From Naegleria gruberi (Eukaryota): a stretch of 64,000 bases of DNA. Shown in pieces: positions 22,087 to 64,000 of this stretch (position 1 is its first letter; every line of letters starts with the position of its first letter). Both the position numbers and the translations under genes were made by a program. Location of the stretch: the NCBI GenBank assembly GCA_000004985.1, contig GG738891.1; one strand, 5' to 3'. A model generated the notes under the pieces. It ran no database searches, was not told where the DNA came from, and worked only from the letters and a program-made list of their open reading frames with translations.

Positions 22087-22137
22087 NNNNNNNNNNNNNN
22101 NNNNNNNNNNNNNNNNNNNNNNNNNNNNNNNNNNNNN

Positions 22138-33924: not shown

Positions 33925-34087
33925 TGCCAACATTCCTCTTGGTGGTCGCCTCTCTCGTTTTCACAGCGGATGGCAANNNNNNNNNNNNNNNNNNNNNNNN
34001 NNNNNNNNNNNNNNNNNNNNNNNNNNAATATTACTTTTATATTTTTGTGATACTAGTAACTATATATCTACTATTACACTTAATAGT

Positions 34088-45325: not shown

Positions 45326-48300
45326 TTATTCAAATACCAATCTCAAATCAATTTGCACTGCAGATGGAATTTCTTCTTCCTTCTTCTTCTTTCTGAATAA
45401 TTTTCTAACAGATTCCGATGAAAAATTGGACAAGACCGATATGAAGGAATGTCTAGAATTTGTTGTTGAGTTTCCATCATCATCATCACCTCCTCCTCTG
45501 CCTACGCCTTTGCCTCCTCTCACAACAGTCACTGCTCCTTCTGAATTATGATCATCACCATCATCATTATCATGACTAATTGTGATGTTGTTGCTATGAT
45601 TTGAATGTGTATCCTCCTCTCCCCTTGTTGAAGGAGTTTCTCTTGGAGTTGGTGGAAGATAAATTGTTTCTCCCTCCACAATAGGATGATCTTCATTATA
45701 TATTATTGTTGTTGTACTCGTATTATTAATAGTATTATTTAAATTAATGATAGGAACAACAGGATGAGGATGAGGATTAAAAGGCTCGATATGAAGATGA
45801 GGTTTTTCATCATCACCATTATCACTTTCTACATCGACATCAATTGCTGTTGTCATTGAAAGTGCTCTTCTTCTTCTATTCCGATGATGACGAAGAATGC
45901 TCGATTTACCACAACAATAACAACACCACCAACAGCAACAACAAAACTGCAGGCAAGGAATGGCTAGACAACATAATTCTCCATAGAAACAATAGTAGGC
46001 ATAGCAACCAATTGTTACAGAGCAACACAAAACCATAGCACCAACCACCACAGCAATGATAATGCCTATTAACATACTCTGATCATCTATATAAATCTTC
46101 TTTTGGACAATGAAGAGATTGAGTGTGGAGGAGACAAGATTGGTCATGTTGAAAGTGACAGAACATTTGCAGGTTGCCATTGTTGAATTGATAATTGTAA
46201 CTATGCAATTTGGATTATCTTCGATGGATAGTGTACTGATTGAGATTGAGGCACATGAATATGATGTATTGACCTCTTTGAAGAACAATTGACCCAAATT
46301 ACTGTCATCTTGAGTAGTAGTAGTATTCTCTAGCAGTGGAATATGGAATTCCAAGTCAATTATGGAAGATGATTTCAATAAGGCAACATCCAAATCACCA
46401 AAACCAAAAGCAATAATTTTAGATTGGAGAGAGGACTTTCTTCTAACTTTCTCAGAGAGAGTTTCTACTTTTGAGGCTAAATAATCACCAATGGAGAATA
46501 TATCATCCACCACAAGGAATGCTTGAAGGAATGGTTTGCTGGAATGTGTGGCCTTAATAGTATTATTTAACTGTACTTTGACACTTGTCAATGTTGAAGG
46601 TTCTATCAACAGCTGATGATTCGAATAGTCGTATAACCACACCAGTTCCATCACTCTTCTATAGAATGCTGCCTTCTTAAAGACTTTTGTTCTTGTCTTT
46701 GGTTGACTTCTGGCTTCTAGATGGGAGGTAAACTTGAGAGTTGTAAATAATTGTTGTGCATTTGAAGCTTGTTTGGTAAAGAATCGTTTCTCAAGGATGA
46801 ATTGGAAGGCAGAATCAATGACAGAGTCCAAACAAAAGTCAACACCCACTGGAAGTTTCAAGCTTTCATCAGCAATCACCTTAACAAGATATTTGACAAG
46901 TTGGGATAGAGCTTCTGATACTGTATTTGTATCAAGATGTTTGAAGTTATACAGAATCGAGTCTACAGTAAATGCAGCTATGGAAATGAGTTGATTATCC
47001 ATCATTATTTCTGTACCATTTGCTAACATTCTCAATAGTTGTAGATTCTTGTTTTGATATTCTGCAAAATCCTTGATGGTATTTTCACAAGCAACCCCAA
47101 CAAAACCTTCCCTACACATACAGGTATCCTTTTTCAAAATTCCACCATTCTTACATGTGAGACTTCTTGTCAATGACCTAGTATTTTCATATATTGAAAT
47201 TGGTTCAATTTTTGTGATGGCTCTATTCAGAAGGGCAGTAGAAGTTCTAGATATGGCTGCTGATTGATAGAGTGATCCCAATAGCGACTCTTCTTTTGCC
47301 TGTTTAATCCATTGTTGAGCTAAAACTTGTACTTGTGAAAAGGTTGAATATGAGCGAGTTTGAATGCTTACATTCATTGATTCTATAGTTGATGCTTGTG
47401 TGGCTGTATTGATTACCTCAAAGAAACATGTAACTGTCTCACCAATGAATGCTGTAGGAAGTTGTTTCGAATAGCCAACATCAATATTATGCATGTAAAT
47501 TTTTACACCAGACCTATCATCAATGAAACCATATCTGTAATCTAAATGATCTTCTTCACTTTTACAATTCATGCAAATGAATTCAAATTCTGTTTCTACT
47601 GCAAAACCATTCAAAGGAGTAATGGTACAATAACACATTGGAGGAGGGGAGGCAACACTGAAACTGTACTGAATCAATGAAGCAACATTTGCATTTGGAT
47701 CATAAGCTGACAGAGTAATAATATTATTGGAGCCAGCATTTAACAAACTTGGATCAATATTAATGTAATCTGAACTTGTGGAACCAACAATAACATTATT
47801 AACAATTACCGTATAATTGGTAATTAAAGATGTTCCAGGAATGAGAGAGGTCTGTAATGTTAGAGTATCACTAACAAGAAAGTATTCCTTCTTTGGGTAA
47901 ACATTAATAATGTTAATTATTGGTGGAATATACGTAAAATGGATAGTAGTCGATTTATGAATACTTCTTCCATCAGATTTAGTAACTTTAAGATCTAGTT
48001 CTAGTGATAGTGGAGGAACGGGGAAAAGAGCTGCATCAATTTTGAAGTTCGTTGACTTTTCTGAGGATAGTACTGAGAGAAACTCTAATAAGAGCTCATT
48101 GACGTTATTGTCCAAGCATGTCCATTCCCACACTTCTGTAGAGTATGCGTTGTAAACCATTTCAGGATCTGTATAATCTACATTAATTATGGTATAATTG
48201 GGTTGTGCATCAAAAGTAATTAAGTTCAAGTATAGATCTGGAGGTTTGGTGATTAAGGTTACAACTGAAACATCTTTGATGTTAGGATTGGATGGATAGT

Positions 48301-51300
48301 AGACAGATACTTGGAATTTATAGATCTGGTAACCAAATGTTTCTAAAGAGACGTAGAGGTCAGAGTATTTATCCATACTGTATCTGATTTTTGGTCCACT
48401 CAATTGAGTCCATTCAATGATTGAATTTTCTGATTTGCATGAAGATTCTGACACTATTTTCTTGATGGTAATAGGAAATTGAGTAGTTACTTTTTCAATA
48501 GTTGTTTGTGGAACATATAATGCTGGAAGAGGGCTTTCTGCTTTTGAAAATATGGAAGAATATACAGTTGAGCTATTTACAATATTTCCCACCACAAGAG
48601 AAACTAAATATTTTCCTTGTGGAAGGGTTGAATCTAGCTTAATTAATGGAGTATTGGGGAAATTGAATGGAATAATTTGGAACACATGGTCTGTCTCATT
48701 GAACAAGGTCCAGTAATAGTCAAGTGGTGTATTATTTGGAGATATACTGAGCGAGCCATCAATGATAATCTCATCACAGGAGCTATAGAATTCTGAGAGT
48801 AGATTTATGGATGCTGTTGGAGCGATAACTTTTTCATTTTCACACCAAATGCCATAATATCCATTCTCACATTGGCATTGATTGTAATCTATGCATACAC
48901 CTCTTCCAGAACAAACATTAGAATCATTCGAAAGTAGAGAATCACATCGTGTCAACTCACAATTCACACCAACATGATTACTGGTGCATGTACAATTATC
49001 AAAGCTTGAACAATTACCACGATTTGAACACACCAAAGGATTGGTATTATTCAGACCGAAACAAGAGTATTGTTCACAACTTTCACCGAAATAGCCGTCA
49101 GAGCATTGGCAAGTATCCAAATCAATGCAATTACCCTTTCCAGAGCAAACAGTTTCTTTTTCACTTGATGAAATGTTGAAACATGTGGTCAACTCACAAT
49201 TAGCTCCATGATACTTTTCTCCACATGTACAATTATTGTAGGATGAGCAAAATCCTCTACCAGAACAAACCTTTGAATCGGCATGCTCTGTTCCATTACA
49301 ATCAAAATAATTACATAGATCTCCATAAGTTCCTAATTGACAAGAGCACTTATTCACATCAATACATTGGCCATTTCCAGAACACACTGTCGAGTTGTCT
49401 TTTTCAATACCAAAGCATGAAAATTCTTTACATTCCACACCAGTATATCCTGAACGACATTTACAATCATCAAAATCAACACATTCACCTCTTCCTGAAC
49501 AAACATTTTGAGTTTCATTGCTCAAAACACCAAAACAACTTGTCACTGAACAATCTAATCCGAAATAATGTGATACACATTCGCACTCATCTGTTTCAGT
49601 ACAACTTCCGTGCCCAGAGCAAACTCTGGAATCAGTTCTATTCATTCCATAACAAGAATAATATTGGCAGTTGTCTCCGTAATATCCTTCAGAACAATTG
49701 CATTGATTGAATCGATAGCAATTTCCTTTTCCAGAGCAAACTTGAGGATTTGATGAAGATACATTGAAACACACATAAGATTCACATTCTTCTCCATGAT
49801 ATCCATGCTCACATGAGCAATTATTAGGAGAAACGCATTGACCATGACCTGAACAAGCCAATGGTTCTGAATGTTGCACATTAAAACATGAGAAATTGTC
49901 ACATTCCTTTCCATAGTAACCAGATACACATGTGCAATTATCAAAATCAACACATTCACCTCTTCCAGAACAAACACTTGAAGAATTGGAAAGTTTGGAG
50001 AAGCAAGTAGTGATGGAACAGTTCAAATCCATATAGTTCTCATCACATTGGCATTGATCCAAGCTGGAACAAGTTCCTCTTCCAGAACAAACATTGGAAT
50101 CTGAAGAATTGAATCCAAAACATGTGTAAAGTTCACAAAATTCACCAAAATATCCATATTCACATTGGCAATTATTAAATGTTTCACATGAACCATGCTT
50201 GGAACAAACTGAGCTATTGGAAGATGAAATTCCATCACAAGTAGTTTCTTGACAGAATGAACCAAAGTAATGTTCTACACATTCGCATGTGTCATGTTGC
50301 TTGCATTCACCACGTCCATTACAAACTCTTGAATCATTACTTAATAATCCCTCACAGGATGTCACTTGACATTTATCACCCCACCAATTGTTTGAGCAGT
50401 GACATGTATCGGGTCCAACACATATTCCATTTCCAGAACATGATATGTTTAAAGTTTTCGATTCATTAAAACATGAAAATTCGTCACAATTTGATCCAAA
50501 ATAATCAATTTCACATTGACATAAATTAAAATCAATGCATTGACCATGTGAGGAACAAACTAGATTGGTTTGATTCGATGGGATGGAAGCACAGGTGGTG
50601 AGTTGACATTCTTCTCCGAAATAGTTTGGTAGACAAAAGCATTCGTCAAGTTTCGAACAATTTCCTCTTCCAGAACAAACACTTTTGGTTTCAGTATGAT
50701 TAATTCCAAAGCAAGCATAATTTTCACAATCCATGCCTGAATAACCATTCTCACATTCGCAAATTTCAGATTTTAAGCATTTTCCGTGTTTGGAACAAAC
50801 TGAACTATTTAAATGCTCAATTCCATTACAATAAAATTCTTCACAATTTGATCCAAAATAACCAGTATTACAAGTGCAATTGTTAAAATCATTACAGTTA
50901 CCATTTTTGGTACAAACAGTCGAGTCATTTGACATTATTCCAAAACAAGAGGTTACGTCACATGCCAATCCAAAGTAATTTTCTTGACATTCACAATTTC
51001 CAAAATCTGAACAATTTCCTCTTCCTGAACAAACTAACACATCATTTTGAGTAATATTGTTACATGTGTAATATTGACATTCATCACCAAAATATCCAAA
51101 TTTACAAGAACAAGTATTGTAATCAATACATTTTCCTTTTCCAGAACAAGCTCGTGAACTGGAAGATATTTCAGCACCACAACTTGTCAATTGACAATAA
51201 TCTCCAAAATAGTGAGCTTGACATTTACAATTATTGTAAGAAGTACAATTTCCTTTTTGGGAACAAACAACAGAAGAATTGGTATTGTTAATGCCATTAC

Positions 51301-54300
51301 AAGTATAATATTGGCATTCTTCTCCGAAATATCCATCATTACAACGACATGAATTGTAATCAATACATTGGCCGTTAGAGGAACAAGCAGTTTCGTTTTG
51401 GTTGGAATATTCGAAACATTCGAATATCTCACAATTGAAGCCCCTGTAATTAAGCGAGCAGTTACATTGATTGTAATCAATGCAATTACCCTTTGATGAG
51501 CAGACTGTTGAATTTAGAGATGATACTGAGCTACATGTGGTCAACTCACAATTTTTTCCAAAATAATTTTCTTCACAAGTACAATTATCGAAACTTGAGC
51601 ATTTTCCTCGAGAAGAGCAAACTTTAAAATCGACATTTGATATTCCATGACATGAAAAATATTGACATTCGTCTCCAGAATATTCATCATTTTCACAAGC
51701 GCAATTATTAAAGGAAGTACATTTGCCGAAACCAGAACAAACTGAAGAGTTATAAGATTCAATTCCATTACAAGTGGTAATTTCACAACTCAATCCAAAA
51801 TAATTCATTTCACATTGACAGGTGTCAAAATCAACACAAGCTCCATAACCAGTACAAACCAAACTGTCATTACTCAATATTCCATTACAACTTGTCACTT
51901 GACACATTGATCCAAACATATTTTCCTTACATTCACAAGTATTTACATCAAGACATTTGCCACGACCAGAACATGACAAGTTGGAGAATTTGGAAATTTC
52001 AAAACAATTGAAATTTTCACATGAATCTCCATAATAATCAGCTGTGCAATTACAAGTATTGTAATCTATACATGTTCCCTTTGATGAGCAAACAGAACTT
52101 TCATTGGATTGAATATTATTACAAGTGGTCAATTCGCAATTATTTCCAAAATAGGAATCAATACAGGTGCAATTATCAAAACTCGAACATTTTCCTTTTG
52201 AAGAACAAACAGATTCCAAAGTATTGTTCACATTGAAACAAGTATAAAATTGACAATCATTTCCAAAGTATCCTTCGTCACATTCGCAATTCTCAAAACT
52301 TTTACAATGACCTCTTGATGAGCAAACTGAGGAATTGTAATGTTCAATGCCATTACAGTTAAATAATTCACAATTGGTTCCATAATATCCTTCATTGCAT
52401 TCGCAGAAATCAAAATCTGTGCAATTTCCTTTTCCAGAACAAACATTAGTTTCGTTTGAAAGTGTTGAATTACAACTGGTCAATTGACATTCATCTCCTA
52501 AATAATTAAGGAAACATGAACAATTATTTGTTGAATAGCATTCTCCACGTGAATGACAAACAGATGAGTTGATATTCAAAATGTCAAAACATTTGAATTC
52601 AGAACAATCAGAACCAAATGAATTTTCAAAACATTGACAGGTGTCAAATTGTGAACAAACTCCATTTCCAGAACATGTCAAATCTGTTACATTGGATGGA
52701 ACTCCAAAACATACAGTAACTTGGCAGAATTGACCAAAATAATTTTCAGTGCAATTACAACTATCTGTTTCAATACAATTACCACGTCCTGAACAAACAA
52801 TTGATTCATTACTCAATGTTCCATTACATTTGTATAATGAACAGTCAGCTCCGTAAGCATCTGGTTGACATTGACAGGAATTCACATCAGAACATTTGCC
52901 TCTGCCAGAACAAACTAATTGTGATTGATTTGAAGGAATGGAAAAACAATCAGTCACTTGACAATAATCTCCATAATATCCATCTCTGCATGAACATTGA
53001 TTTGGTGATAGACATTCTCCTCTTCCAGAACAAGTAATTGTTTCATTACTAAAAATGGAATTACATATTGTAACTGAACAATTCAGTCCAAAGTAATTAA
53101 AATCACATTCACACAAATCTGTTTCTGAACAAATACCATGTCCAGAACAAACCAAAGATTCACTATTATTCAAACCAAAGCAAGTGTGGAATTGACAATT
53201 CTCTCCATAATATCCCTCAGAACAATTACAATGATTGTAAGAAGAACAATCACCTTTTCCAGAACAAACACTGTTATTGGTCATATCAAGTCCAAAACAA
53301 GATGTTCTCTCACAAAATTCACCATAGTATCCATCCGTACAATTACAAATATCTTTTGCAACACAATTTCCATTGGAATTACAAACACTTGTCAAATTAC
53401 CAAAAGTTCCATTACATTTGGATATGGAACAATCCTCACCAAATGCATCTGGAAGACAAATACATGAATCTATATCTGAACAATTGCCTCTTCCTGAACA
53501 AACTGTAGAGTCCAAGTTGAGTGTGCCAAGACATGAGAATTGAGAACAAGTTATTCCTGAATAACCTGGTTTACAAGTACAATTATTGAAAGAAGAACAT
53601 AAACCGTGAGAGGAGCATACTTGAGTGAAATTGGAAACAATATTTTCACAAGTCGTGAGCTGGCAGAATGGACCAAAATAATTTGCCGTGCAATTACAGA
53701 TATCTGGATTAATACACGAGCCACTTCCGCTACAAACAAGGGAATCATTACTTGGAATACCATTGCACAATGTAAATTCACAATTTGTTCCATAAATTTG
53801 AGAATTATTGCAATGACAATTGTTAACATCTGAACAAACGCCCCTTGAGGAACAAACTGATGAGGAATTTCTGTTAAATCCAAAGCAATCATATTCTTGA
53901 CAGTCAGATCCATAGTATCCTTCCTCACATTCACAATTATTGTATTGAGTACAATTACCGCGACCTGAACAAACAATTGTGGAATTTGAAACGATATTTG
54001 AACACGTTGTGAACTGACACCATTCACCAAAGTAATGTTTGGAACAGTTGCAAACTTTGAAATCGGTACAAATACCATTCTTTGAACAGACTAATGAATC
54101 ATTTGCAGTAATATTGTTACAATATGGAATTTCACAATTCAATCCAGTATAACCATATTTGGAATCACAATTACAATTATTATATGAATCACAACTTCCA
54201 TGTCTACTACAAACACGTTGATCATTAGATCCAAAACCATAACATGTTGTAAAATCACAAAAAGTTCCAGCATAATTCAAGTCACATTCACAAACGTCCA

Positions 54301-57300
54301 TGTCAACACATTTTCCAAAATTATTACAAACAAGAGATGAGTTTGAAGAGATCGAATCACAAGTAGTAAATTCACAATTCGATCCAAAATATCCTTCTCT
54401 ACATTCACATCTATTGTACTCTGAACAGATTCCTCGGCCACTACATACAGACCTATTATTCGAATCCACTCGGTCACAAGTTGTAAGTTCACACCAATCA
54501 CCGAAATAATTCTGAGAGCAGTTACAATAATTTGGACCATAGCAAGTACCCCTGGAATTACAAACTCTTGAATCATTGCTCATCGTTCCATTACAATATG
54601 TCAATTCGCATTCTAATCCAAAACTAAACTCATTACACTCACACTTATTGTAATCAACACATTTGCCATTTTTTGAACAAGTTTCATTGGAATTAAAAAC
54701 TCCAAAACATGAAAATTCGCTGCAATTAAACCCAAAGTATCCATAACTGCATTCACAGGTATCGTATGCAGTACATTTACCCTTTCCATTACAAACTTGA
54801 GAATGTTGTGAATCAACTCCATAACAACTGGTCAACTCACAAAAGGAGCCCCAATAGTACGGTTCTATACAAGAGCACACATCAGGATTAGAACAGTTGC
54901 CTCTACCAACATCAGTACACTTTCCAATTAGTCCATTACATATTGGAATATCACAATCTGAGCCACCATAACCTAAAGTCTCATTACATGTGCAATTATT
55001 GAAATTTTCACACAATCCTCTCAAATTACAAACCAATGGTGAAGTGTTTTCAATGAGATTACATGTTGTAAATTGACACCACTCTCCATAATGACCCTCT
55101 TCACATGAACAAACATCGGTTTTTGTGCATTTTCCATGACCATTACAAACAAGAGTTTCATTTCCCAAAGTGCCATTACAATACAATACTGAACAATCAA
55201 CTCCAAAAGTGTCTGGTCTACAAGAGCAGGTATTGAAATCTGTACAATTTCCATTTCCAGAACAAACAGTTGGAGAGTTTGGAAGCAAATCAAAACATGT
55301 GAATAAATTGCAGTCCTCTCTGACATATGGTTGTAAAGGGTCAAAGGTTGATGGTTGACTGAATTTTGCTTGTTTCAAAATTAAATAACCACCTTCTGTA
55401 CAGGTTGACCAAATAGCTCCTTGAATATTATCTGAAACTATGAAATCGTGTCCATATCTTGCAATTACAGTTCCATGAACATTTCCAGAAAAGGTATTTC
55501 CATGAATTGCTGGATTGTAAACCCAATTTGCATTTCCAGAGCTGAAATAATAAGTCAACCAAAAAACATTTCTATAGGTAGCACATTTCAGATAGGTAAA
55601 ATCGGCGCCAAAATAGTGTACGAAAGGAAGCTTAAAGACCACTGGTTCAATTCCTACAATTGTAAACTTTTGGCCATTGATTGTCCATCCATTTTCCATG
55701 CAATAGACACCTCCTCTGTTGATGATAATGTTTCTACCCATGTCAGTGTCTGGATTTTTTATCATGTAATCACAAGGAAGGGCCAGAAGCTCCTGCATCT
55801 TATTAGAAACTTGTTGAACTAATTCTAAACCGTAATTTTCTGAACTGTTTGTAACTATAGCACTTCCATTGGCAACATAGGGATAAACTGGATCTGGATA
55901 AACATAATTTGGAGGATTAATGACGAATGAAGGTATTGCAATACTAGCAGAAAGTGGCGCGTTATCCAAACTATTCTTAACTAAAACTATTGGAATGTTG
56001 GAGATTAATTTATAACCAGCAAATATATCATTTTCGCACAAGGTTCCAGAAAAGCCAGCACTACAAGTACATTGATCAAATGCATAGCAACGTCCTCTTC
56101 CAGAACAAACTGAACTATTCGTATTTTCAATGCCGAAACATGAAGTAAATTGGCAGAAAGTTCCATAATAATTTTGAGAACAGGAGCAATTATTTGGAGC
56201 AAAACAAGCACCTCTTCCAGGTGCAGTACAAATTCCTACCAAATTATTACAAATAGGAATATCACAATTAGGTCCGCCAAATCCCATTTCTGTCCTACAT
56301 GTACAATTATCGAAATAGTCACAAATTCCACTACTGTTACAAACAAGAGGTGAATATTTGGAAACTCCTGCACATGTTGTAAACTCACAAAAAGTTCCAT
56401 TGTGTCCAAAGTCACATTGACATGTATCCTTGGCCACACATCGTCCGTGTCCACTACAAACATTTGAAACATTACTAAGAATTCCATTACAAAAGGAAAG
56501 TGAGCATTGAGGACCATAACTATCTGAATTACATATACAGGTGTCAAAATCTACACATTTACCCCTTCCAGAACATGTCATATTTGAAGTTGACACAATG
56601 CCATAACAATTCACACGAGAACAGAAAGTTCCATCATAATACGAATCTTGTGGATTAAATGTTATAGGTGCTGACAGTTTTACATCTTTAAAATTGAGAT
56701 TTCCTTTAGAATTTGGTGAATGAATCATCAAAGATCCTTGTATGTCACCTGTAACTGTCAAATCAGCATTGCTATTTGCGATCATTGTTCCTTGAACAGT
56801 TCCAGAAATAGTTAAATTAGAGTTTGCATCAGTGGATAGGAAGAGTAAATTTCTATAAGTTGCGCACTCAAGATATGAAACCTTGGATCCAATATAATTA
56901 AAATACGGAGCTTTAAAGACAACTTGTTCAGTACCTATTATGGTTAAAGACATTTTGTTAATTGTCCATCCTTGCTTCAAGCAATAAACCATTCCACCTC
57001 TAATAGTGATGCTAGTAGTCAATTCCAAGTCTGGATTAGTAACATTAACTGTACATGGTAATGCTATTAATTCAGTTACTTTTTTTGTTAATTCTTGAGA
57101 AAGAATTTGTCCGCTAGATGTTGTAGTATTCTTAATGACTGCATCTCCATTCGAAACATATTGGAATTGATACTTTTCTGTAACCATTAGTGGAATTGCA
57201 ATACTGGCCAATAGATATGAATTGGATCTTGAGTTTTTTACCAAATTTAGTTTCTTATTGGTGATGAGTTTGTATCCAGCAAAAAGATCATTTTGACAGT

Positions 57301-60300
57301 TAGTGCCAGAGAAACCTGCTCTACAAGAGCATGTATTGTAATCTGTACAATAACCATGTCCACTACAAACCATCGAATCATTGGAAATAAGCCCAAAACA
57401 AGTAGTCAACTCACAATTCACACCCAAATATCGTGAAGATGAGCATGTACAAGTATTAGCATTCGAACAAGTTCCTCTTCTCGAACAAACATTAGGATTT
57501 GAAGCATTCAAACCGAAACACATGGAAACATTGCACCAAGTTCCAGTAAATTTCGAATAATCAGCGCAAGTGCAATTATTGAAAGGCCAACAAGTTCCAT
57601 GCCCACCACAAACTAATGAAGAATTTGAAGATGAAATGGAAGCACAAGTTGTTTGATTGCAATTTGGTCCAAAATAATTGGATTTACAGGAACAAGTGTC
57701 AGTTGCCAAACAACTTCCCAATCCATTGCAAGTTTGTGTGGAATTACTCCAAATGCCAAAGCATTTCTGAATGGAACAATTCGTTCCATAATATCCATCG
57801 TAACATTTACATGTGTCAATAGCAGAACAAACACCTTTTCCACTACAAACATTTGTTGAATTTTTGAGAATTCCAAAACATTTGTAAATTTCACAATTAC
57901 TTCCAGAATATCCTGTCTTACAAGTACAATTGTTGTAATCAATGCATTTACCAAATCCTGAACAAGTTAGTGAATTATTTGATTCAATTCCACCACAAGT
58001 TGTCAAATCACAGAATTGACCATGATAACGTTGTGAACAGTTACAAACATCTGGATAGATACATGAACCATGAGTATTACAAACTGATGAAAGAGAAGCC
58101 TTTGTTCTATTGCAAATAGGAATTTCACAATCTAATCCAGTATAACCAAACTCTGAACTGCAATTACAATTATTGTAAACTTGACAAGAACCTCTTTCTC
58201 TACAAGCCAAGGAAGAATTTGATGAAACACCATTACATGTGGTTAGCTCACAGAATTTTCCGTAATAATGAGCATTACACTCACAAATGTCTTTGGCAGA
58301 ACAAATTCCTCTACCAGAACAAACAGTTGATATGTTACTGAAAATTCCATCACATTTAGATATGGAACAATCACTTCCATAGGCATCCTCTGAGCATACA
58401 CAAGTGTTATAATCTATGCATTGTCCTCTTCCATGACATGTACTATTTAAATTTGAAGAAACATTATAGCAAGAAGTGTAATTACAAAAATCTCCGATAT
58501 ACTTTTCATGAGTATCAAAAGTTAATGGTACAGCAAGAGAAACTTCATGTAAAATTGAGGTAGAGCTTCCTGTTACCCATAATTGACCATCAAACGGTCC
58601 TATTACCGTCATTGATCCAGAATAATTGGGAATGTACGTTCCAAGAATTGGTGGTAAATAATTTGTCAACTTGTTTCCTCCTTCAATCACAGTGGAACCA
58701 CCAATTATCCAGAAAAAGTTTCTATGGGATGCACATTCCAGTAGCAATATGTTTGCATTAGTAATTGTAAGAGACTGAACTTTGAAAATCACTAGTTCAG
58801 TACCAATAATTACAATTCTTTGGGACGAGTTGATTGTCCAAGTGAAATCAAAACAAAATACCCCAGATTTTCTAACAACAAGTTCTTTAGGTATTTGTGA
58901 TGAGCTGGTAAATCGTTGAGTGCAGGCCATTGCTATCAAGCTAGTTCTTTTTCTCTTCATTTTTTGAATAATCACATTTGACAGCGAGATAGAACTTTTA
59001 GTCATGGTTGCCTTTCCCTTGGATTTTAAAGTAATTCCGGTACTACTCATAGAACCATAAATAATACTTGATCCAAAGTACCTAGTTAAGCTGTTTACAA
59101 CTGGCTGATAATAGTTGTTCGAATATTCAATTTCGAATACACCTGGAGTATCAGAAATGAGACCATACCCAGCAAACATATCATACATGAATCTTTCACA
59201 ATAGATTCCATCATATTCGTCCTGACAAGAGCATGTTTCGTACAAATTACAAGCTCCATGTCCATTACAAACAAACGAATCATTCGAAGCAGTTTGGTTA
59301 CAAGTTGTCAGTTGACACCAATCACCATAATAATGATCATTACATAAACAGCTATTAGGGGATGTACACTTTCCGTGTGAGCTACAAACATTCGAATTAT
59401 CGCTATAAGTTCCATTACAAATTGTAATCTGACAATTCAATCCAAAATAATTTGGAATACAGGAACAAGTATTTGGGGCCATGCATGAACCTTTAGAAGA
59501 ACAAGTTGAATTCAACAAGCTAGATACTCCATTGCAATCATACTTATTACAAATTGTATCGTAATAACCTGATTTACATGTACAAGTTTCGAATGCAGTA
59601 CAAGTACCATGTGAGGAACAAACGGCCGTGTTATTCGATTCAGTTCCATTACAAGTAGTTACCTCACAATTAACACCATAGTAATGTTCTTTGCAGTGAC
59701 ATGTATTTGGTTCTGTGCAGTTACCTCTACCTGAGCAGACTTTCGAATCAGTGGCAGGTTTAGAATAACAAACAGGGATTTGACATTCAGATCCAGTATA
59801 TCCCTTTAGAGGATTACAAACACAAGTATTATAAGGCCAACAAGTACCCCTTTCATTACAAACGGTGGTGTTTGTGGAATTAATTCCAAAACATGTTGTA
59901 AATTGACATTTGAAGCTTTCGTAATTTGGTTTACAGACACAGGTGTCAGTATCTACACATGTGCCTTCTCCGCTACAAACATGTGATACATCATTACTTA
60001 AATACCCATAACACTTGGAAATTGAGCAATCATTTCCATAATATCCATCTCTACATTTACAATTATTGTAATCTAAACATTCACCTCTTCCAGAGCAAGT
60101 TGTGTTTGAATTTCTATTGATTCCATAACAATTAAATTCTTGACAATTATTTCCGTAATAGTTCGTCTTACAATCGCACTTTTCAAAGGCAGAACAAGAA
60201 CCATGAGATGAACAAACAGTTGAATTTGTTGAATTAATTTCTGAACATGTTGTCACTTGACATAGATCACCAAAGTAATGATCTGAACAATTACATACAG

Positions 60301-63300
60301 AAGGAGAGATGCAAGAACCATGTGCACTGCATACTGCACTACCAGTTGCCAAAATTCCTTTACAAATAGGAACTTGGCAATAGCTTCCTCCATATCCATA
60401 ATTGGAATTACAAGAACAGTTTTCATATTTGATGCATTGTCCTCTTCCACTGCAAACATCTGAAGAATTGCTGGAAATACCTCCACAAGTAGTCAATTCA
60501 CAGAAAGTTCCATAATAATTAGCATTACAAGAACAAGTATCTGGTCCTACACATTTTCCTCGAGTGGAGCAAACTGAAGATGTATTGCTATATGTGGAGT
60601 TACATAAGAACAAGGAGCAATCTAATCCAAAAGCACCTTCTAGACACTTGCATGTATCAATATCGACACAAACACCCTTTCCTGAACAAGTTGTATTTGA
60701 GTTGGATTTTTCATTGTAACATGTTGTAAAGTTACAAAAATCTCCAACTATTTGATCATAAGGATCAAATGTTATAGGAGCTGTAAACTTCACATTACTT
60801 AATTCTATCATCCCTAAATTCCAAATCTGACCTTCAACAAGACCACTAATTGGCAAATAGTCAACCGATGAAACAAGAGTTCCATACAGAGGACCCACAA
60901 CACGTGAAGTGAAATTCACAGACTTTCCTATGAACCAATAAACATTTCTAAATGACGAACATTCTAAATGAATCATTGAAACATTCTTATAATCAATACT
61001 TGGTGCTTTGAATACAATTGTCTCTGTACCAATTATTGTAATCTTTGTAGAAGAAACTGTTAAAGTTGAATTAAAGCAATAGACTCCTCCCTTTCTAATT
61101 ACCATAGAATTTGCAAAGAATGATAGAGAATTTGATATGTAATAGTTGCATCTCAATAGATTTAACTCTTGAACTTTTTCTTTCATTTGTCGAAGCAATT
61201 CTATACCAATTGGTTGACTTGTATTTGTAATGATAGCATTTCCATTAGAAATGTATTCGTATTGACCTTGAGAAACATTCATTGATGGTATAGCTATACT
61301 TGCCATCAAAGGGGAATTAGTTTGCAAGTTGATTTTTACATTGATTTTCGACTCACTGATTAATTTGTATCCAGCAAAGTAATCATGAATGAAAAGTTCA
61401 CAATTTGAACCATTATAACGAGTTACACATTCACAGATATCATAATCTAGACATTTTCCGTTTCCAGAACAAGCTAATGAAGAATTAGAAACCTCGCCAA
61501 AACATGTTGTCATTTCACACAAACTTCCCAAATAATTGCTATCACATGAACAGAGATCTGTAGAAGTACATGATCCGTGAGAGCTACATACAGAAGAAAC
61601 GTTGCTAAATACCCCGTTACATGTAGTTACTTCACAAGTATTTCCATAGAAATTTGTATTGCATTCACAAGTGTCTATATCAATACAATTTCCATTTTTG
61701 GAGCAAGATAAACCAGAGGCCATTCCTATTCCAAAGCAATCATATTCCTGACAAATCTTACCATAATAACCTTCCATGCATGAACAATTGTTAAAATCTG
61801 TGCATTCACCATGTCCAGAGCAAACCAAAGAATCATTTGAACTGATTCCATCGCATGTGGTCAACTCACATAAATTTCCAAAGTATGTGTCACTGCAATT
61901 ACAATAATCCAGCAATACACAATTTCCTCTATGGTTACACACCGTTTCATTGGTAGATATTATACCTTTGCAATATGTAAGTTCACATGAAAATCCCTCA
62001 AACCCTTCAAAACAAGTACAATTCTCAGCCATCGCACAAATTCCATTTCCATTACAAACAGTTGTGTCATTTGACAATACTCCACCACACAAGGTTTCAG
62101 AGCATGTCTCACCAAAATAGTTCAATTCGCAAAGGCAACTGTTTGTACTATGGCAAGAACCTCTTCCAGAGCAAACAGAACTGTCATTACTCGAAATACC
62201 ATTACAATAGGAAATTTCACACATCGCTCCCTCATATCCTTCTTCACATTGACAAGAATCAATATCTAAGCATTGACCCCTTCCAGAACAAACTTTACTA
62301 TTGTTCAAAGATAAACCGAAACAATTAAAAATTTCACATTCTTGTCCATAGTATCCTTGGGCACATTCACAATAATTGAAAGAAGAACAACTTCCTCTCA
62401 TGGAACAAACTGATGTAGAGTTGGATTCTAATCCAAAACACGTGGTTGATTGACAGAATTCTCCATAATAATTATCTGTACAATTGCAAATATTAACATC
62501 AATACATTGACCTCTTTCTGGTTGAGTGCAATAACCAACCAATCCATTGCACGTTGGAATATCACAATTGGATCCTCCATAAAGAAATGATGCATCACAA
62601 GAGCAATTATTAAATTTCTCACATGAACCTCTTTGATTACAGGCATTTGGTGATAAATTTGAAATACCATCACAAGTTCTGAATTGACACCAAGTACCAT
62701 TATTTCCATATTCACAAAGACAAGTATCTGTAGAGATACATTGACCATTTCCACTGCATGCATTCGATTCATTTCCAAGTACTCCATTACATTTGGAAAT
62801 AGAACAATCGTGTCCATAACTTTCTGAAGGACACAAGCATGCGTCCAAGCCAACACATAATCCCCTTCCTCCACAAACGCTCGCCTCACTCGATAACACT
62901 CCAAAACAATAGGTACTTAAGCATTGTGCAGTAATATAGGTATCATATGGATTGAAAGTTATTGGCGGACTAAACACGAGATCAAAAACAATCAATTGAG
63001 TTCCTCCGACATACCAGATTGCTCCTTGGACATTGTGGTAAACCTCCAAGCTGTAATAAGGAGAGGCTCCTATCACTGTACCATGAATTGTTCCTGTGAA
63101 AAAGTTGCCATTCAATCCTCTATCAAATGTCAACCAGAAAAAGTTTCTGTAAGAGGCACATTCCAAGTAATAGAAAGTGGCTCCATAGTAGTAGACAAAA
63201 GGAGTTTTGATTACAACAGGTTCTGTACCAATCACTACAAAAGTATAAGATGAATCTATGGCCAATCCATTTGGAAAACAATACACTCCTCCATGTTTGA

Positions 63301-64000
63301 AAATTGCACTCTTATTAGATCCAAAAAATGGTTCCTGATTGGAAAAGGTAAAATCACATGGTTTCTCAATAATTTCTTGAGCTCTTTTTTCCATGGCTTG
63401 AACAATTTGATCACCTAAAGGGTTTGTATCGTGTGTGTAAGAAATTGATGCGTAAACTTCGTCATCTGCCAAAACAAATGGTTCTGGAGGTGTTGATACA
63501 TAGGCTGTCGATAAAATCATTGATGGAAGAGCAATACTTGCAGAAAGAATGTTATTTGGAGCAGAGTTTCTTCCAATTACAACAGGTCTTGTACTAATGA
63601 GCTTGTAACCTGCTAAAATATCAACTTCACACAAATTCCCTTCAAATCCAGAAGGACATTCACATGTTTGATAGTCTGAGCATTTACCAACTCCTGAACA
63701 AGTAAACCTTGAATTGGATACAACCCCTCCACAAGATGTTAATTCACACAATTCACCAAAATAATTATTAGAGATGCACGAGCATTGATTAGGGCCAATG
63801 CACGAACCTCTCGAATTACAAGCAGTACTATTGGTATTCTCTACCTCTCCACATTTGAAAAGCTCACATTCTTCTCCATAAGCACCAGTGGAGCAGAGAC
63901 AAGTATCTAACTGTGTGCAATTTCCTCTTGAAGAACAAACATTGCTCATATTGGAGAGTTTATCAAAACAGGTGCTAATTTCACATTCCATACCAGAATA
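45326..64000 (-). CDS. Giant (more than 6,221 aa, N-terminus beyond the window) intronless extracellular-repeat protein: about 150 tenascin/laminin-type EGF-like repeats, five copies of an unknown ~330-aa module, a REJ/PKD-like region and GPS-like motif, one TM, and a Cys-rich basic juxtamembrane segment plus acidic cytoplasmic tail
   Basis: There is a single 18,666-nt ORF from 45326 to 63991, still open at the window edge. The repeat unit is C.G.G.C….C.C…(Y/F).G..C(E/Q) of ~31 aa, iterated with frequent NxS/T sites. The module is 'AGYKLIS…IAIPSM…KGGVYCF…TI.GTEPVVFKAP…LECA(S/T)YRN.FW…'. Near the C-terminus are REJ-like (…EVWEWTC…) and GPS-like (…NPNCIVTIINSTMATCKCSVTFNMTNL…) sequences, then the TM LIGIIIAVVVGAMVLCCSVTIGCYAYYCF, then CCLAIPCLQFCCCCWWCCYCCGKSS…HRNRRRRA, then an acidic/Asn-rich tail ending …DLRLVFE*. 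Confidence 0.7.
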   Translation of the reverse strand, partial: YSGMECEISTCFDKLSNMSNVCSSRGNCTQLDTCLCSTGAYGEECELFKCGEVENTNSTACNSRGSCIGPNQCSCISNNYFGELCELTSCGGVVSNSRFTCSGVGKCSDYQTCECPSGFEGNLCEVDILAGYKLISTRPVVIGRNSAPNNILSASIALPSMILSTAYVSTPPEPFVLADDEVYASISYTHDTNPLGDQIVQAMEKRAQEIIEKPCDFTFSNQEPFFGSNKSAIFKHGGVYCFPNGLAIDSSYTFVVIGTEPVVIKTPFVYYYGATFYYLECASYRNFFWLTFDRGLNGNFFTGTIHGTVIGASPYYSLEVYHNVQGAIWYVGGTQLIVFDLVFSPPITFNPYDTYITAQCLSTYCFGVLSSEASVCGGRGLCVGLDACLCPSESYGHDCSISKCNGVLGNESNACSGNGQCISTDTCLCEYGNNGTWCQFRTCDGISNLSPNACNQRGSCEKFNNCSCDASFLYGGSNCDIPTCNGLVGYCTQPERGQCIDVNICNCTDNYYGEFCQSTTCFGLESNSTSVCSMRGSCSSFNYCECAQGYYGQECEIFNCFGLSLNNSKVCSGRGQCLDIDSCQCEEGYEGAMCEISYCNGISSNDSSVCSGRGSCHSTNSCLCELNYFGETCSETLCGGVLSNDTTVCNGNGICAMAENCTCFEGFEGFSCELTYCKGIISTNETVCNHRGNCVLLDYCNCSDTYFGNLCELTTCDGISSNDSLVCSGHGECTDFNNCSCMEGYYGKICQEYDCFGIGMASGLSCSKNGNCIDIDTCECNTNFYGNTCEVTTCNGVFSNVSSVCSSHGSCTSTDLCSCDSNYLGSLCEMTTCFGEVSNSSLACSGNGKCLDYDICECVTRYNGSNCELFIHDYFAGYKLISESKINVKINLQTNSPLMASIAIPSMNVSQGQYEYISNGNAIITNTSQPIGIELLRQMKEKVQELNLLRCNYYISNSLSFFANSMVIRKGGVYCFNSTLTVSSTKITIIGTETIVFKAPSIDYKNVSMIHLECSSFRNVYWFIGKSVNFTSRVVGPLYGTLVSSVDYLPISGLVEGQIWNLGMIELSNVKFTAPITFDPYDQIVGDFCNFTTCYNEKSNSNTTCSGKGVCVDIDTCKCLEGAFGLDCSLFLCNSTYSNTSSVCSTRGKCVGPDTCSCNANYYGTFCELTTCGGISSNSSDVCSGRGQCIKYENCSCNSNYGYGGSYCQVPICKGILATGSAVCSAHGSCISPSVCNCSDHYFGDLCQVTTCSEINSTNSTVCSSHGSCSAFEKCDCKTNYYGNNCQEFNCYGINRNSNTTCSGRGECLDYNNCKCRDGYYGNDCSISKCYGYLSNDVSHVCSGEGTCVDTDTCVCKPNYESFKCQFTTCFGINSTNTTVCNERGTCWPYNTCVCNPLKGYTGSECQIPVCYSKPATDSKVCSGRGNCTEPNTCHCKEHYYGVNCEVTTCNGTESNNTAVCSSHGTCTAFETCTCKSGYYDTICNKYDCNGVSSLLNSTCSSKGSCMAPNTCSCIPNYFGLNCQITICNGTYSDNSNVCSSHGKCTSPNSCLCNDHYYGDWCQLTTCNQTASNDSFVCNGHGACNLYETCSCQDEYDGIYCERFMYDMFAGYGLISDTPGVFEIEYSNNYYQPVVNSLTRYFGSSIIYGSMSSTGITLKSKGKATMTKSSISLSNVIIQKMKRKRTSLIAMACTQRFTSSSQIPKELVVRKSGVFCFDFTWTINSSQRIVIIGTELVIFKVQSLTITNANILLLECASHRNFFWIIGGSTVIEGGNKLTNYLPPILGTYIPNYSGSMTVIGPFDGQLWVTGSSTSILHEVSLAVPLTFDTHEKYIGDFCNYTSCYNVSSNLNSTCHGRGQCIDYNTCVCSEDAYGSDCSISKCDGIFSNISTVCSGRGICSAKDICECNAHYYGKFCELTTCNGVSSNSSLACRERGSCQVYNNCNCSSEFGYTGLDCEIPICNRTKASLSSVCNTHGSCIYPDVCNCSQRYHGQFCDLTTCGGIESNNSLTCSGFGKCIDYNNCTCKTGYSGSNCEIYKCFGILKNSTNVCSGKGVCSAIDTCKCYDGYYGTNCSIQKCFGIWSNSTQTCNGLGSCLATDTCSCKSNYFGPNCNQTTCASISSSNSSLVCGGHGTCWPFNNCTCADYSKFTGTWCNVSMCFGLNASNPNVCSRRGTCSNANTCTCSSSRYLGVNCELTTCFGLISNDSMVCSGHGYCTDYNTCSCRAGFSGTNCQNDLFAGYKLITNKKLNLVKNSRSNSYLLASIAIPLMVTEKYQFQYVSNGDAVIKNTTTSSGQILSQELTKKVTELIALPCTVNVTNPDLELTTSITIRGGMVYCLKQGWTINKMSLTIIGTEQVVFKAPYFNYIGSKVSYLECATYRNLLFLSTDANSNLTISGTVQGTMIANSNADLTVTGDIQGSLMIHSPNSKGNLNFKDVKLSAPITFNPQDSYYDGTFCSRVNCYGIVSTSNMTCSGRGKCVDFDTCICNSDSYGPQCSLSFCNGILSNVSNVCSGHGRCVAKDTCQCDFGHNGTFCEFTTCAGVSKYSPLVCNSSGICDYFDNCTCRTEMGFGGPNCDIPICNNLVGICTAPGRGACFAPNNCSCSQNYYGTFCQFTSCFGIENTNSSVCSGRGRCYAFDQCTCSAGFSGTLCENDIFAGYKLISNIPIVLVKNSLDNAPLSASIAIPSFVINPPNYVYPDPVYPYVANGSAIVTNSSENYGLELVQQVSNKMQELLALPCDYMIKNPDTDMGRNIIINRGGVYCMENGWTINGQKFTIVGIEPVVFKLPFVHYFGADFTYLKCATYRNVFWLTYYFSSGNANWVYNPAIHGNTFSGNVHGTVIARYGHDFIVSDNIQGAIWSTCTEGGYLILKQAKFSQPSTFDPLQPYVREDCNLFTCFDLLPNSPTVCSGNGNCTDFNTCSCRPDTFGVDCSVLYCNGTLGNETLVCNGHGKCTKTDVCSCEEGHYGEWCQFTTCNLIENTSPLVCNLRGLCENFNNCTCNETLGYGGSDCDIPICNGLIGKCTDVGRGNCSNPDVCSCIEPYYWGSFCELTSCYGVDSQHSQVCNGKGKCTAYDTCECSYGYFGFNCSEFSCFGVFNSNETCSKNGKCVDYNKCECNEFSFGLECELTYCNGTMSNDSRVCNSRGTCYGPNYCNCSQNYFGDWCELTTCDRVDSNNRSVCSGRGICSEYNRCECREGYFGSNCEFTTCDSISSNSSLVCNNFGKCVDMDVCECDLNYAGTFCDFTTCYGFGSNDQRVCSRHGSCDSYNNCNCDSKYGYTGLNCEIPYCNNITANDSLVCSKNGICTDFKVCNCSKHYFGEWCQFTTCSNIVSNSTIVCSGRGNCTQYNNCECEEGYYGSDCQEYDCFGFNRNSSSVCSSRGVCSDVNNCHCNNSQIYGTNCEFTLCNGIPSNDSLVCSGSGSCINPDICNCTANYFGPFCQLTTCENIVSNFTQVCSSHGLCSSFNNCTCKPGYSGITCSQFSCLGTLNLDSTVCSGRGNCSDIDSCICLPDAFGEDCSISKCNGTFGNLTSVCNSNGNCVAKDICNCTDGYYGEFCERTSCFGLDMTNNSVCSGKGDCSSYNHCNCSEGYYGENCQFHTCFGLNNSESLVCSGHGICSETDLCECDFNYFGLNCSVTICNSIFSNETITCSGRGECLSPNQCSCRDGYYGDYCQVTDCFSIPSNQSQLVCSGRGKCSDVNSCQCQPDAYGADCSLYKCNGTLSNESIVCSGRGNCIETDSCNCTENYFGQFCQVTVCFGVPSNVTDLTCSGNGVCSQFDTCQCFENSFGSDCSEFKCFDILNINSSVCHSRGECYSTNNCSCFLNYLGDECQLTSCNSTLSNETNVCSGKGNCTDFDFCECNEGYYGTNCELFNCNGIEHYNSSVCSSRGHCKSFENCECDEGYFGNDCQFYTCFNVNNTLESVCSSKGKCSSFDNCTCIDSYFGNNCELTTCNNIQSNESSVCSSKGTCIDYNTCNCTADYYGDSCENFNCFEISKFSNLSCSGRGKCLDVNTCECKENMFGSMCQVTSCNGILSNDSLVCTGYGACVDFDTCQCEMNYFGLSCEITTCNGIESYNSSVCSGFGKCTSFNNCACENDEYSGDECQYFSCHGISNVDFKVCSSRGKCSSFDNCTCEENYFGKNCELTTCSSVSSLNSTVCSSKGNCIDYNQCNCSLNYRGFNCEIFECFEYSNQNETACSSNGQCIDYNSCRCNDGYFGEECQYYTCNGINNTNSSVVCSQKGNCTSYNNCKCQAHYFGDYCQLTSCGAEISSSSRACSGKGKCIDYNTCSCKFGYFGDECQYYTCNNITQNDVLVCSGRGNCSDFGNCECQENYFGLACDVTSCFGIMSNDSTVCTKNGNCNDFNNCTCNTGYFGSNCEEFYCNGIEHLNSSVCSKHGKCLKSEICECENGYSGMDCENYACFGINHTETKSVCSGRGNCSKLDECFCLPNYFGEECQLTTCASIPSNQTNLVCSSHGQCIDFNLCQCEIDYFGSNCDEFSCFNESKTLNISCSGNGICVGPDTCHCSNNWWGDKCQVTSCEGLLSNDSRVCNGRGECKQHDTCECVEHYFGSFCQETTCDGISSSNSSVCSKHGSCETFNNCQCEYGYFGEFCELYTCFGFNSSDSNVCSGRGTCSSLDQCQCDENYMDLNCSITTCFSKLSNSSSVCSGRGECVDFDNCTCVSGYYGKECDNFSCFNVQHSEPLACSGHGQCVSPNNCSCEHGYHGEECESYVCFNVSSSNPQVCSGKGNCYRFNQCNCSEGYYGDNCQYYSCYGMNRTDSRVCSGHGSCTETDECECVSHYFGLDCSVTSCFGVLSNETQNVCSGRGECVDFDDCKCRSGYTGVECKEFSCFGIEKDNSTVCSGNGQCIDVNKCSCQLGTYGDLCNYFDCNGTEHADSKVCSGRGFCSSYNNCTCGEKYHGANCELTTCFNISSSEKETVCSGKGNCIDLDTCQCSDGYFGESCEQYSCFGLNNTNPLVCSNRGNCSSFDNCTCTSNHVGVNCELTRCDSLLSNDSNVCSGRGVCIDYNQCQCENGYYGIWCENEKVIAPTASINLLSEFYSSCDEIIIDGSLSISPNNTPLDYYWTLFNETDHVFQIIPFNFPNTPLIKLDSTLPQGKYLVSLVVGNIVNSSTVYSSIFSKAESPLPALYVPQTTIEKVTTQFPITIKKIVSESSCKSENSIIEWTQLSGPKIRYSMDKYSDLYVSLETFGYQIYKFQVSVYYPSNPNIKDVSVVTLITKPPDLYLNLITFDAQPNYTIINVDYTDPEMVYNAYSTEVWEWTCLDNNVNELLLEFLSVLSSEKSTNFKIDAALFPVPPLSLELDLKVTKSDGRSIHKSTTIHFTYIPPIINIINVYPKKEYFLVSDTLTLQTSLIPGTSLITNYTVIVNNVIVGSTSSDYINIDPSLLNAGSNNIITLSAYDPNANVASLIQYSFSVASPPPMCYCTITPLNGFAVETEFEFICMNCKSEEDHLDYRYGFIDDRSGVKIYMHNIDVGYSKQLPTAFIGETVTCFFEVINTATQASTIESMNVSIQTRSYSTFSQVQVLAQQWIKQAKEESLLGSLYQSAAISRTSTALLNRAITKIEPISIYENTRSLTRSLTCKNGGILKKDTCMCREGFVGVACENTIKDFAEYQNKNLQLLRMLANGTEIMMDNQLISIAAFTVDSILYNFKHLDTNTVSEALSQLVKYLVKVIADESLKLPVGVDFCLDSVIDSAFQFILEKRFFTKQASNAQQLFTTLKFTSHLEARSQPKTRTKVFKKAAFYRRVMELVWLYDYSNHQLLIEPSTLTSVKVQLNNTIKATHSSKPFLQAFLVVDDIFSIGDYLASKVETLSEKVRRKSSLQSKIIAFGFGDLDVALLKSSSIIDLEFHIPLLENTTTTQDDSNLGQLFFKEVNTSYSCASISISTLSIEDNPNCIVTIINSTMATCKCSVTFNMTNLVSSTLNLFIVQKKIYIDDQSMLIGIIIAVVVGAMVLCCSVTIGCYAYYCFYGELCCLAIPCLQFCCCCWWCCYCCGKSSILRHHRNRRRRALSMTTAIDVDVESDNGDDEKPHLHIEPFNPHPHPVVPIINLNNTINNTSTTTIIYNEDHPIVEGETIYLPPTPRETPSTRGEEDTHSNHSNNITISHDNDDGDDHNSEGAVTVVRGGKGVGRGGGDDDDGNSTTNSRHSFISVLSNFSSESVRKLFRKKKKEEEIPSAVQIDLRLVFE

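Follow-up and report, generated by a model that had tools for sequence, protein, structure and literature searches.

A 64,000-nucleotide stretch of Naegleria gruberi DNA (assembly GCA_000004985.1, contig GG738891.1), referred to here as the window, ends in a minus-strand open reading frame (ORF) that encodes a giant protein, apparently unannotated, from an uncharacterised family of Heterolobosea. Its combination of domains is unusual, and its GPS motif is naturally degenerate. The protein combines tandem EGF repeats and inserted DUF3494-like modules with a REJ region, a GAIN domain and a single transmembrane helix (TM). We consider it probable that this type I protein of the EGF-REJ-GAIN family acts as a long-reach adhesion or surface-sensing receptor, a function that we infer. 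The ORF has the following extent:

45326 to 64000, minus strand: whole ORF, 6,224 sense codons plus the terminal stop at 45326-45328; 5'-incomplete, running past the window edge.

Direct translation showed that the minus-strand frame is still open at base 64000 and contains a single stop, at 45326-45328. Its 6,224 sense codons agree with the initial annotation, which had described an uninterrupted ORF of more than 6,221 codons open at the window edge. Given the base composition of the window, stops are expected at a frequency of 0.073 per codon, and a stop-free run of this length has a chance probability of ~1e-206. The first residues, YSGMEC, read directly from the sequence, form the last part (C5-C6) of an EGF unit, indicating that the ATG at 63991 is internal and that the gene extends upstream of the window. 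No N runs are found within 45326-64000; those of the window lie at 22087-22137, 30349-30398, 33977-34026, and 37310-38244.

We also assessed the integrity of the repeats at the DNA level. Tandem Repeats Finder reported nothing on 45326-64000. In a self-BLAST of the ORF DNA, the top-scoring internal matches were 64-72% identical, the highest identity among internal matches of at least 90 nt was 79%, and the longest exact repeat measured 27 nt. Because of this low maximal identity and the shortness of the exact repeats, the EGF array is old and diverged and shows no recent expansion of the kind prone to collapse or inflation by an assembler. Together, these data indicate a genuine single-exon N. 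gruberi gene whose 5' end lies beyond the window.

The ectodomain contains at least 99 intact six-Cys EGF units, identified with a regular expression, in six blocks of at least 3, 13, 13, 10, 5, and 55 units:

63629 to 64000, minus strand: EGF block 0, a partial unit and 3 units (aa 1-124); six-Cys regular expression, Pfam EGF_2 and Teneurin EGF.
61400 to 62908, minus strand: EGF block 1, 13 units (aa 365-867); regular expression and Pfam.
59198 to 60721, minus strand: EGF block 2, 13 units (aa 1094-1601); regular expression and Pfam.
57296 to 58471, minus strand: EGF block 3, 10 units (aa 1844-2235); regular expression and Pfam.
56036 to 56608, minus strand: EGF block 4, 5 units (aa 2465-2655); regular expression and Pfam.
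48842 to 55297, minus strand: EGF block 5, 55 consecutive units (aa 2902-5053); regular expression and Pfam.

The EGF unit follows the pattern C-x10-C-x5-C-x5-C-x-C-x8-C plus a 4-aa linker, with a C1-C6 span of 35 aa. The measured period is 39 aa and not the ~31 aa given in the initial annotation. Block lengths are exact multiples of this period, and all six cysteines are kept in 99 of the 99 recognisable units. Across the first 5,050 aa, Pfam returned EGF_2 (E 5e-119 and 3e-173) and EGF_TEN (E 1e-96 and 1e-155), together with matches to the Teneurin EGF domain and Teneurin-like EGF (EGF_Teneurin). The units are tandem, six-Cys, of the EGF_2 type, and devoid of a calcium-binding consensus, which defines a tenascin/teneurin-type array. 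The 99 units and their EGF_2 and EGF_TEN matches therefore substantiate the enormous Cys-rich EGF/tenascin-type array proposed earlier. The Pfam scan of the giant protein gave no match to a YD shell, FN3, or fibrinogen globe. Since no other teneurin or tenascin features appeared in that scan, the domain type is held in common with these proteins, and membership of the teneurin/tenascin family does not follow. The ectodomain also contains 179 NxS/T sequons, with one in the C1-C2 loop of ~80% of the EGF units, and the giant protein is predicted to be heavily N-glycosylated.

The EGF array is broken by five Cys-poor modules of 220-243 aa (~230 aa), which were absent from the initial annotation:

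62921 to 63631, minus strand: DUF3494-like module 1 (aa 124-360); module profiles, PDB and Pfam comparison.
60734 to 61393, minus strand: DUF3494-like module 2 (aa 870-1089); module profiles, PDB and Pfam comparison.
58484 to 59191, minus strand: DUF3494-like module 3 (aa 1604-1839); sub-threshold Ice_binding PF11999 match of 16.4 bits, module profiles.
56624 to 57298, minus strand: DUF3494-like module 4 (aa 2235-2459); module profiles, PDB and Pfam comparison.
55310 to 56038, minus strand: DUF3494-like module 5 (aa 2655-2897); module profiles, PDB and Pfam comparison.

The modules are 29-43% identical to the first one. When a profile of the five modules and the corresponding module of the N. 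gruberi paralog P0001 was compared with the PDB, all nine matches were ice-binding/DUF3494 chains (best E 7e-5), with an alignment spanning the helix region, the 'GGVY' turn, and the 'A..NVFW' strand. A 15-module profile likewise matched only DUF3494 or ice-binding proteins (14 of 14 PDB matches, best E 8.6e-5), and Pfam PF11999 matched two of six modules (best E 1.3e-6). These results suggest that the inserts likely adopt the DUF3494 (ice-binding) beta-solenoid fold.

The region between the last EGF block and the membrane comprises the following features:

47339 to 48823, minus strand: REJ region (aa ~5060-5554; Pfam match aa 5212-5554); Pfam REJ, 60.3 bits.
47087 to 47155, minus strand: single EGF-like unit between REJ and GAIN (aa 5616-5638); four cysteines invariant in the family.
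46082 to 47077, minus strand: GAIN domain (aa 5642-5973), in which a helical subdomain precedes a beta-sandwich.
46163 to 46255, minus strand: GPS core with the invariant C5916, C5932, C5944, and C5946, then a 10-aa insertion at the HL/T turn; family alignment and AlphaFold2 (AF2).
46082 to 46126, minus strand: last GAIN beta-strand TLNLFIVQKKIYIDD (aa 5959-5973), at the Stachel position of cleaved GAINs; strand 410-424 of the model.

The REJ-like region noted earlier was recovered by Pfam REJ PF02010 with an E value of 1.7e-16 and 60.3 bits, against a cutoff of 25, over profile positions 40-420 of 452. From REJ to the membrane, the protein consists of three helices, one EGF-like unit, and a ~330-aa segment. 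A phmmer search of the REJ region against the PDB returned no matches, and a three-sequence profile of the juxtamembrane region retrieved only EGF matches from the same database. AF2 prediction of the juxtamembrane region with three sequences gave no usable model (predicted local distance difference test (pLDDT) of 43.5) and was rerun with a 20-sequence alignment, A4, which was derived from the 1,944 relatives found in a whole-library HMMER search with the REJ-to-TM profile. The only invariant columns of A4 are the four cysteines of the embedded EGF plus one glycine and the four cysteines just before the TM.

Compared with GAIN domains in the PDB, the A4 profile matched ADGRL3 (E 1.5e-14), ADGRF1 (E 7.5e-10), latrophilin-1 (4dlq, E 1.4e-5), and BAI3 (4dlo, E 7e-4). 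The AF2 model obtained with A4 had a pLDDT of 80.8 and a predicted template modelling score (pTM) of 0.79, and it shows five helices followed by a beta-sandwich whose last strand enters the TM helix. The top six Foldseek matches of this model in the PDB were all GAIN domains, with E values from 3.8e-10 to 1.3e-7. The GAIN domain thus directly precedes the first TM, as it does in the PKD1/REJ family. As A4 includes relatives with a canonical GPS, we controlled for circularity by comparing its 15 degenerate-GPS and 5 canonical sequences separately. With the EGF and TM removed, hhalign related the two groups over 280 columns with a probability of 99.45% and an E value of 4.8e-22. The degenerate subfamily on its own ranked adhesion G-protein-coupled receptor (GPCR) GPS regions first in the PDB, with 'CeCskLTNVF' aligned to 'CSCNHLTNFA'.

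The GPS of the giant protein reads CKC-SVTFNMTNLV-SSTLNLFIV, and its 10-aa insertion is unique to it. AF2 placed the insertion in a loop of modest confidence (local pLDDT ~59) that replaces the tight HL/T turn. In the family alignment, the four GPS cysteines are retained and the catalytic His-Leu-Thr triad is absent. Pfam GPS gave no match to the GPS segment of the giant protein at E values up to 10, and the paralog P0001 reached a sub-threshold 15.3 bits. Canonical relatives read C.C-NH-LTDF (P0077), C.C-NH-ATDF (Percolomonas P0090), and C.C-SH-ATIF (Willaertia P0036), and P0090 scored 30.2 bits against the Pfam GPS cutoff of 22.5. Several N. gruberi paralogs retain L/F-T with the histidine replaced by Q, K, R, or S. 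The initial annotation had recognised a degenerate GPS in CKCSVTF. This was correct at the domain level, as the CxC is supplied by CKC and the four cysteines are in place. The register, in which SVTF stood for HLTxF, found no support, as in the family alignment and the model SVTF begins the insertion and the last strand is TLNLFIVQKKIYIDD. Because the His-Leu-Thr triad is missing and the cleavage turn carries a 10-aa insertion, autoproteolysis of the giant protein appears unlikely. As a separate matter, we considered whether the insertion might be an unspliced mini-intron and ruled this out, as its 30 nt lack an AG acceptor.

The C-terminal end of the protein consists of the membrane segment and a short tail:

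45992 to 46075, minus strand: transmembrane helix (aa 5976-6003); hydropathy peak of 2.92, within model helix 426-463.
45911 to 46030, minus strand: Cys-rich membrane/juxtamembrane cluster of 15 cysteines (aa 5991-6030), followed by RHHRNRRRR; sequence composition, similar clusters in paralogs.
45329 to 45910, minus strand: cytoplasmic tail of 194 aa, low-complexity; no domain match.

One strong hydropathy peak, at aa 5976-6003, supports the single TM described earlier and, with the basic cluster after it, predicts a type I plasma-membrane topology. After it comes a further hydrophobic, Cys-rich stretch at aa 6009-6027 (score 1.9), which forms one continuous helix with the TM in the AF2 model. 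The juxtamembrane Cys cluster of the initial annotation was also found (15 cysteines in aa 5991-6030), and the paralogs P0001, P0022, and P0059 have comparable clusters with basic residues after them; palmitoylation of the cluster is plausible. The tail, which is disordered, has neither a coiled coil nor any other domain match. With EGF ectodomain, REJ, degenerate GPS, and single TM all upheld, the overall suREJ/polycystin-1-like interpretation of the initial annotation holds.

The giant protein belongs to a family defined by collinear REJ, EGF, four-Cys GAIN, and TM, with DUF3494 modules as an optional addition, and it contains all of these elements. The profile matched at least 14 N. gruberi paralogs over its full length, with scores of 745-1,580 bits. 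They include the 'predicted proteins' NAEGRDRAFT_71231, 51207, 75960, 53311, 76139, and 71256, and further NAEGRDRAFT_53247, 64611, 48114, 61914, 74100, and 82303, plus P0001 and P0002. Relatives are present in N. lovaniensis, N. fowleri (annotated as 'PKD/REJ-like domain-containing protein'), and Willaertia magna, and Percolomonas has a multi-TM relative. The close relatives of the giant protein are Naegleria proteins only.

The closest paralog is NAEGRDRAFT_51207 (P0011; XP_002674088.1 / D2VPE3, 4,968 aa, 'predicted protein'), which is collinear with aa 26-3645 of the giant protein at 46% identity over 3,676 columns. Its five DUF3494-like modules lie at positions 103/849/1603/2245/2668, very close to the 124/870/1604/2235/2655 of the giant protein, and it has the EGF blocks, REJ, embedded EGF, GAIN with four cysteines, and one TM in common with it. 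The two differ in that NAEGRDRAFT_51207 has a shorter array and a Ser/Thr/Asn-rich spacer where the giant protein has its 55-unit terminal EGF block. The annotated start Met of NAEGRDRAFT_51207 lies within an EGF unit, with no signal peptide. Because of this position of the Met, its gene model is probably 5'-truncated as well.

Some distant relatives differ in their C-terminal part. By eye, P0090 (Percolomonas cosmopolitus), P0077, and P0086 have EGF, REJ, and a canonical GPS (NH-A/L/T-TDF) followed by an apparent multi-TM C-terminal region. A RhoGAP domain is present in P0077 and RCC1 repeats in P0090, and all three resemble polycystin-1-like receptors that carry unusual additional domains.

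For the C-terminal 1,174 aa and the N-terminal 900 aa of the giant protein alike, a database of 5.8 billion clusters contained no identical or near-identical sequence, and the REJ-to-TM profile produced no self-match in a search of 1.84 billion representatives. An adenylate/guanylate cyclase encoded on the same scaffold is present in the databases without the giant protein: the neighbouring ORF 10809-12278 matches 'adenylate/guanylate cyclase [Naegleria gruberi]', encoded on a 339,217-bp contig, with 100% identity along its entire length. This match assigns the window to N. gruberi and rules out a dictyostelid origin. Since the searches with the terminal 900 aa and 1,174 aa gave no self-match and the cyclase is there, the gene is apparently absent from the published set of N. 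gruberi proteins. Literature searches turned up no paper that connects Naegleria with the REJ domain, the GAIN domain, or DUF3494, and a search combining Naegleria with polycystin yielded nothing relevant to the EGF-REJ-GAIN family.

Elsewhere in the window, the cyclase gene P0003 (814 aa) occupies 10806-13321 on the minus strand and has two exons separated by one short intron near 12.4 kb. The initial annotation had set the intronless giant gene against neighbours nearly all of which carry introns. The cyclase conforms to this description, but several neighbours are single ORFs of 500-600 aa, and the contrast was overstated. Adjoining the 3' end of the giant gene is a 532-aa ORF (42272-43870, plus strand) in which RING-like Cys motifs, a BTB-like region, and pentapeptide-repeat-like sequence were seen by eye. 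The ORFs 19939-20652 (minus strand) and 32389-33021 (plus strand) form a local inverted paralog pair with 47% identity over 180 aa (E 7e-39). They have in common an identical 30-aa stretch, MKISPIILTKLHPITLPQVPRYSHHSQLSS, which stands at the very start of the former and begins at residue 13 of the latter. The ORF 8615-10809 (plus strand) contains long Asn/Gln-rich tracts and a C-terminal Zn2Cys6-like motif, CINCRKVHKKCDKQLPSCAKCVAKGATC. Together with the 450-aa ORF that follows, it may constitute one intron-split gene for a fungal-type zinc-cluster transcription factor. Single Ns are located at 28118 and 28186, and the low-GC dip at 36-38 kb of the composition profile is caused by a 935-nt gap.

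The proposed adhesion or surface-sensing receptor would work as follows. Its ectodomain is a rod built from at least 99 EGF domains of the non-calcium type, with five DUF3494-like modules in the distal half, and the EGF count alone would give it a reach on the order of 0.2 micrometres. Ligands, probably glycan or particle surfaces, would likely be bound by the beta-solenoid modules as heads, with the EGF arrays serving as rigid glycosylated spacers, and REJ-GAIN would provide the membrane-proximal stalk. Because the triad is absent and a 10-aa loop occupies the cleavage turn, the GAIN domain probably remains uncleaved and would have a structural or force-bearing role instead of working as a tethered-agonist switch. 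Palmitoylation of the multi-Cys segment, if it occurs, would reinforce membrane anchoring.

Several points weigh against this interpretation. The DUF3494 assignment depends on weak-to-moderate profile scores of 20-26 bits, and the direct PF11999 score of module 3, searched within a 2,500-aa piece, was 16.4 bits, below the cutoff of 28.7. The degenerate subfamily alone reaches PDB GAIN domains at just E 0.04, and the canonical-GPS relatives in the AF2 alignment may have helped to pull the model towards GAIN. The loss of cleavage is read from sequence alone, and some GAIN domains cleave with atypical residues. The Cys-rich stretch at aa 6009-6027 could itself be membrane-embedded.

Four other explanations were weighed. 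The protein might be a purely structural component of a surface coat, glycocalyx, or cyst wall, in which the EGF rod and solenoids form an extracellular layer without signalling. Its extreme length, ~180 N-glycosylation sequons, disordered domain-free tail, and uncleavable GAIN would suit such a role, as would the expansion of the family to at least 14 paralogs with variable ectodomains. However, REJ-GAIN-TM and its invariant cysteines are kept in all paralogs, suggesting more than a passive anchor, and we regard this explanation as rather unlikely. A signalling receptor of the suREJ1/polycystin-1 type, in which a ligand such as a sulfated polysaccharide would act through REJ-GAIN on a PKD2/TRPP-like channel to admit Ca2+, would account for the membrane-proximal order EGF, REJ, GAIN, and TM, which is that of suREJ1 and in which REJ and GAIN were confirmed. 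Multi-TM REJ-GPS proteins do exist in Heterolobosea, among them Percolomonas P0090 with its GPS above the Pfam cutoff. The giant protein, however, has one TM, a GPS without its triad, a cytoplasmic tail with neither a coiled coil nor another domain match, and no PLAT or polycystin channel-like domain in the Pfam scan, which makes a signalling receptor of this type quite unlikely.

That the ORF is an artefact, whether through expanded or collapsed repeats, as a pseudogene, or as a chance in-frame fusion of several genes, is hardly credible. In favour of an artefact, the draft scaffold has gaps in other parts of the window, and no identical protein model exists in the databases. Nevertheless, the empty Tandem Repeats Finder output, the best internal DNA matches of 64-79%, the longest exact repeat of 27 nt, and the lack of Ns in the ORF largely dispose of the tandem-repeat expansion or collapse that the initial annotation had named as a possible refutation. 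The six cysteines conserved in every EGF unit, the stop-free probability of 1e-206, and a domain order collinear with that of an independently assembled paralog argue in the same direction. An ice-binding or antifreeze surface protein is suggested by the module profiles, which match ice-binding-protein structures only. DUF3494, however, is a fold family with many members without demonstrated ice activity, the module scores are weak, and N. gruberi is generally known as a mesophilic soil and freshwater amoeba. Ice binding by the modules is not expected, and we consider such a function extremely improbable. The reading that we prefer remains the long-reach adhesion or surface-sensing receptor.

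The REJ-GAIN juxtamembrane module had been known from animals and from the protists Dictyostelium and Tetrahymena, whose GAIN domains are on record (PMC3321182). These results extend it to Heterolobosea, where it has expanded into a family of genes. Canonical (HLT/HAT) and degenerate GPS motifs coexist in this group and offer a natural comparison set for GAIN with and without autoproteolysis. The modules place DUF3494-like sequence in a eukaryotic EGF receptor, where it went unflagged in the database Pfam annotation of the paralogs, and suggest an adhesion role for it outside cold environments. The apparent absence of so large a gene from the N. gruberi reference proteome concerns an organism that is widely used as a free-living outgroup in studies of eukaryote evolution and of the pathogen N. 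fowleri. A bolder and rather doubtful proposal is that Discoba possess single-pass REJ-GAIN receptors in which bacterial-type DUF3494 solenoids were recruited as repeated ligand-binding heads and the GAIN domain lost autoproteolysis to become a permanent force-bearing stalk. If true, it would place a REJ-GAIN adhesion module near the root of eukaryotes and provide an 'uncleavable GAIN' made by nature, which could be compared with cleavable relatives from Willaertia and Percolomonas to study GAIN roles beyond cleavage.

Among known systems, the DUF3494 (PF11999) proteins of the IBP-1 fold from bacteria, fungi, and algae are those matched by the module profiles, and the matches take in the 'GGVY' turn and the strand motif 'A..NVFW' as well as the helix region. 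In the giant protein, by contrast, they are internal and repeated five times inside the EGF array of a eukaryotic membrane receptor. The GAIN domains of the adhesion GPCRs latrophilin, BAI3, GPR110, and CELSR1 show 8-15% sequence identity to that of the giant protein, in which a 9-10-residue loop replaces the cleavage turn and the catalytic His/Leu/Thr, the HormR domain, and the 7TM body are absent. The Pfam scan gave no match to 7tm_2, and the giant protein is not an adhesion GPCR.

Polycystin-1, PKDREJ, and PKD1L proteins likewise have REJ directly followed by GAIN and the first TM. Unlike them, the giant protein lacks the 11-TM body, PLAT, the channel-like C-terminus, and the HL/T triad. 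Neither PLAT nor PKD_channel was matched in the Pfam scan, which separates it from polycystin-1 proper. Where relatives have NHLTDF or SHATIF, it has CKC, a 10-aa insertion, and SSTLNLF and departs from the canonical GPS triad of the PKD1/REJ family. Within that family, a single TM fits the suREJ1 subtype only. As reportedly described by Moy et al. in 1996, suREJ1, the sea-urchin receptor for egg jelly 1, has the module order EGF, REJ, GAIN, and a single TM. It is ~1,450 aa long and carries C-type lectin domains besides its EGF module. The giant protein differs in its at least 99 EGF domains, its five DUF3494-like modules, its lack of a lectin domain, and its length of more than 6,200 aa, and the two come from different eukaryotic supergroups. 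As a surface receptor for an extracellular polysaccharide, suREJ1 binds the fucose sulfate polymer of egg jelly (PMC9265791). What the giant protein has in common with it is the REJ module, the juxtamembrane GPS/GAIN region, and the single TM.

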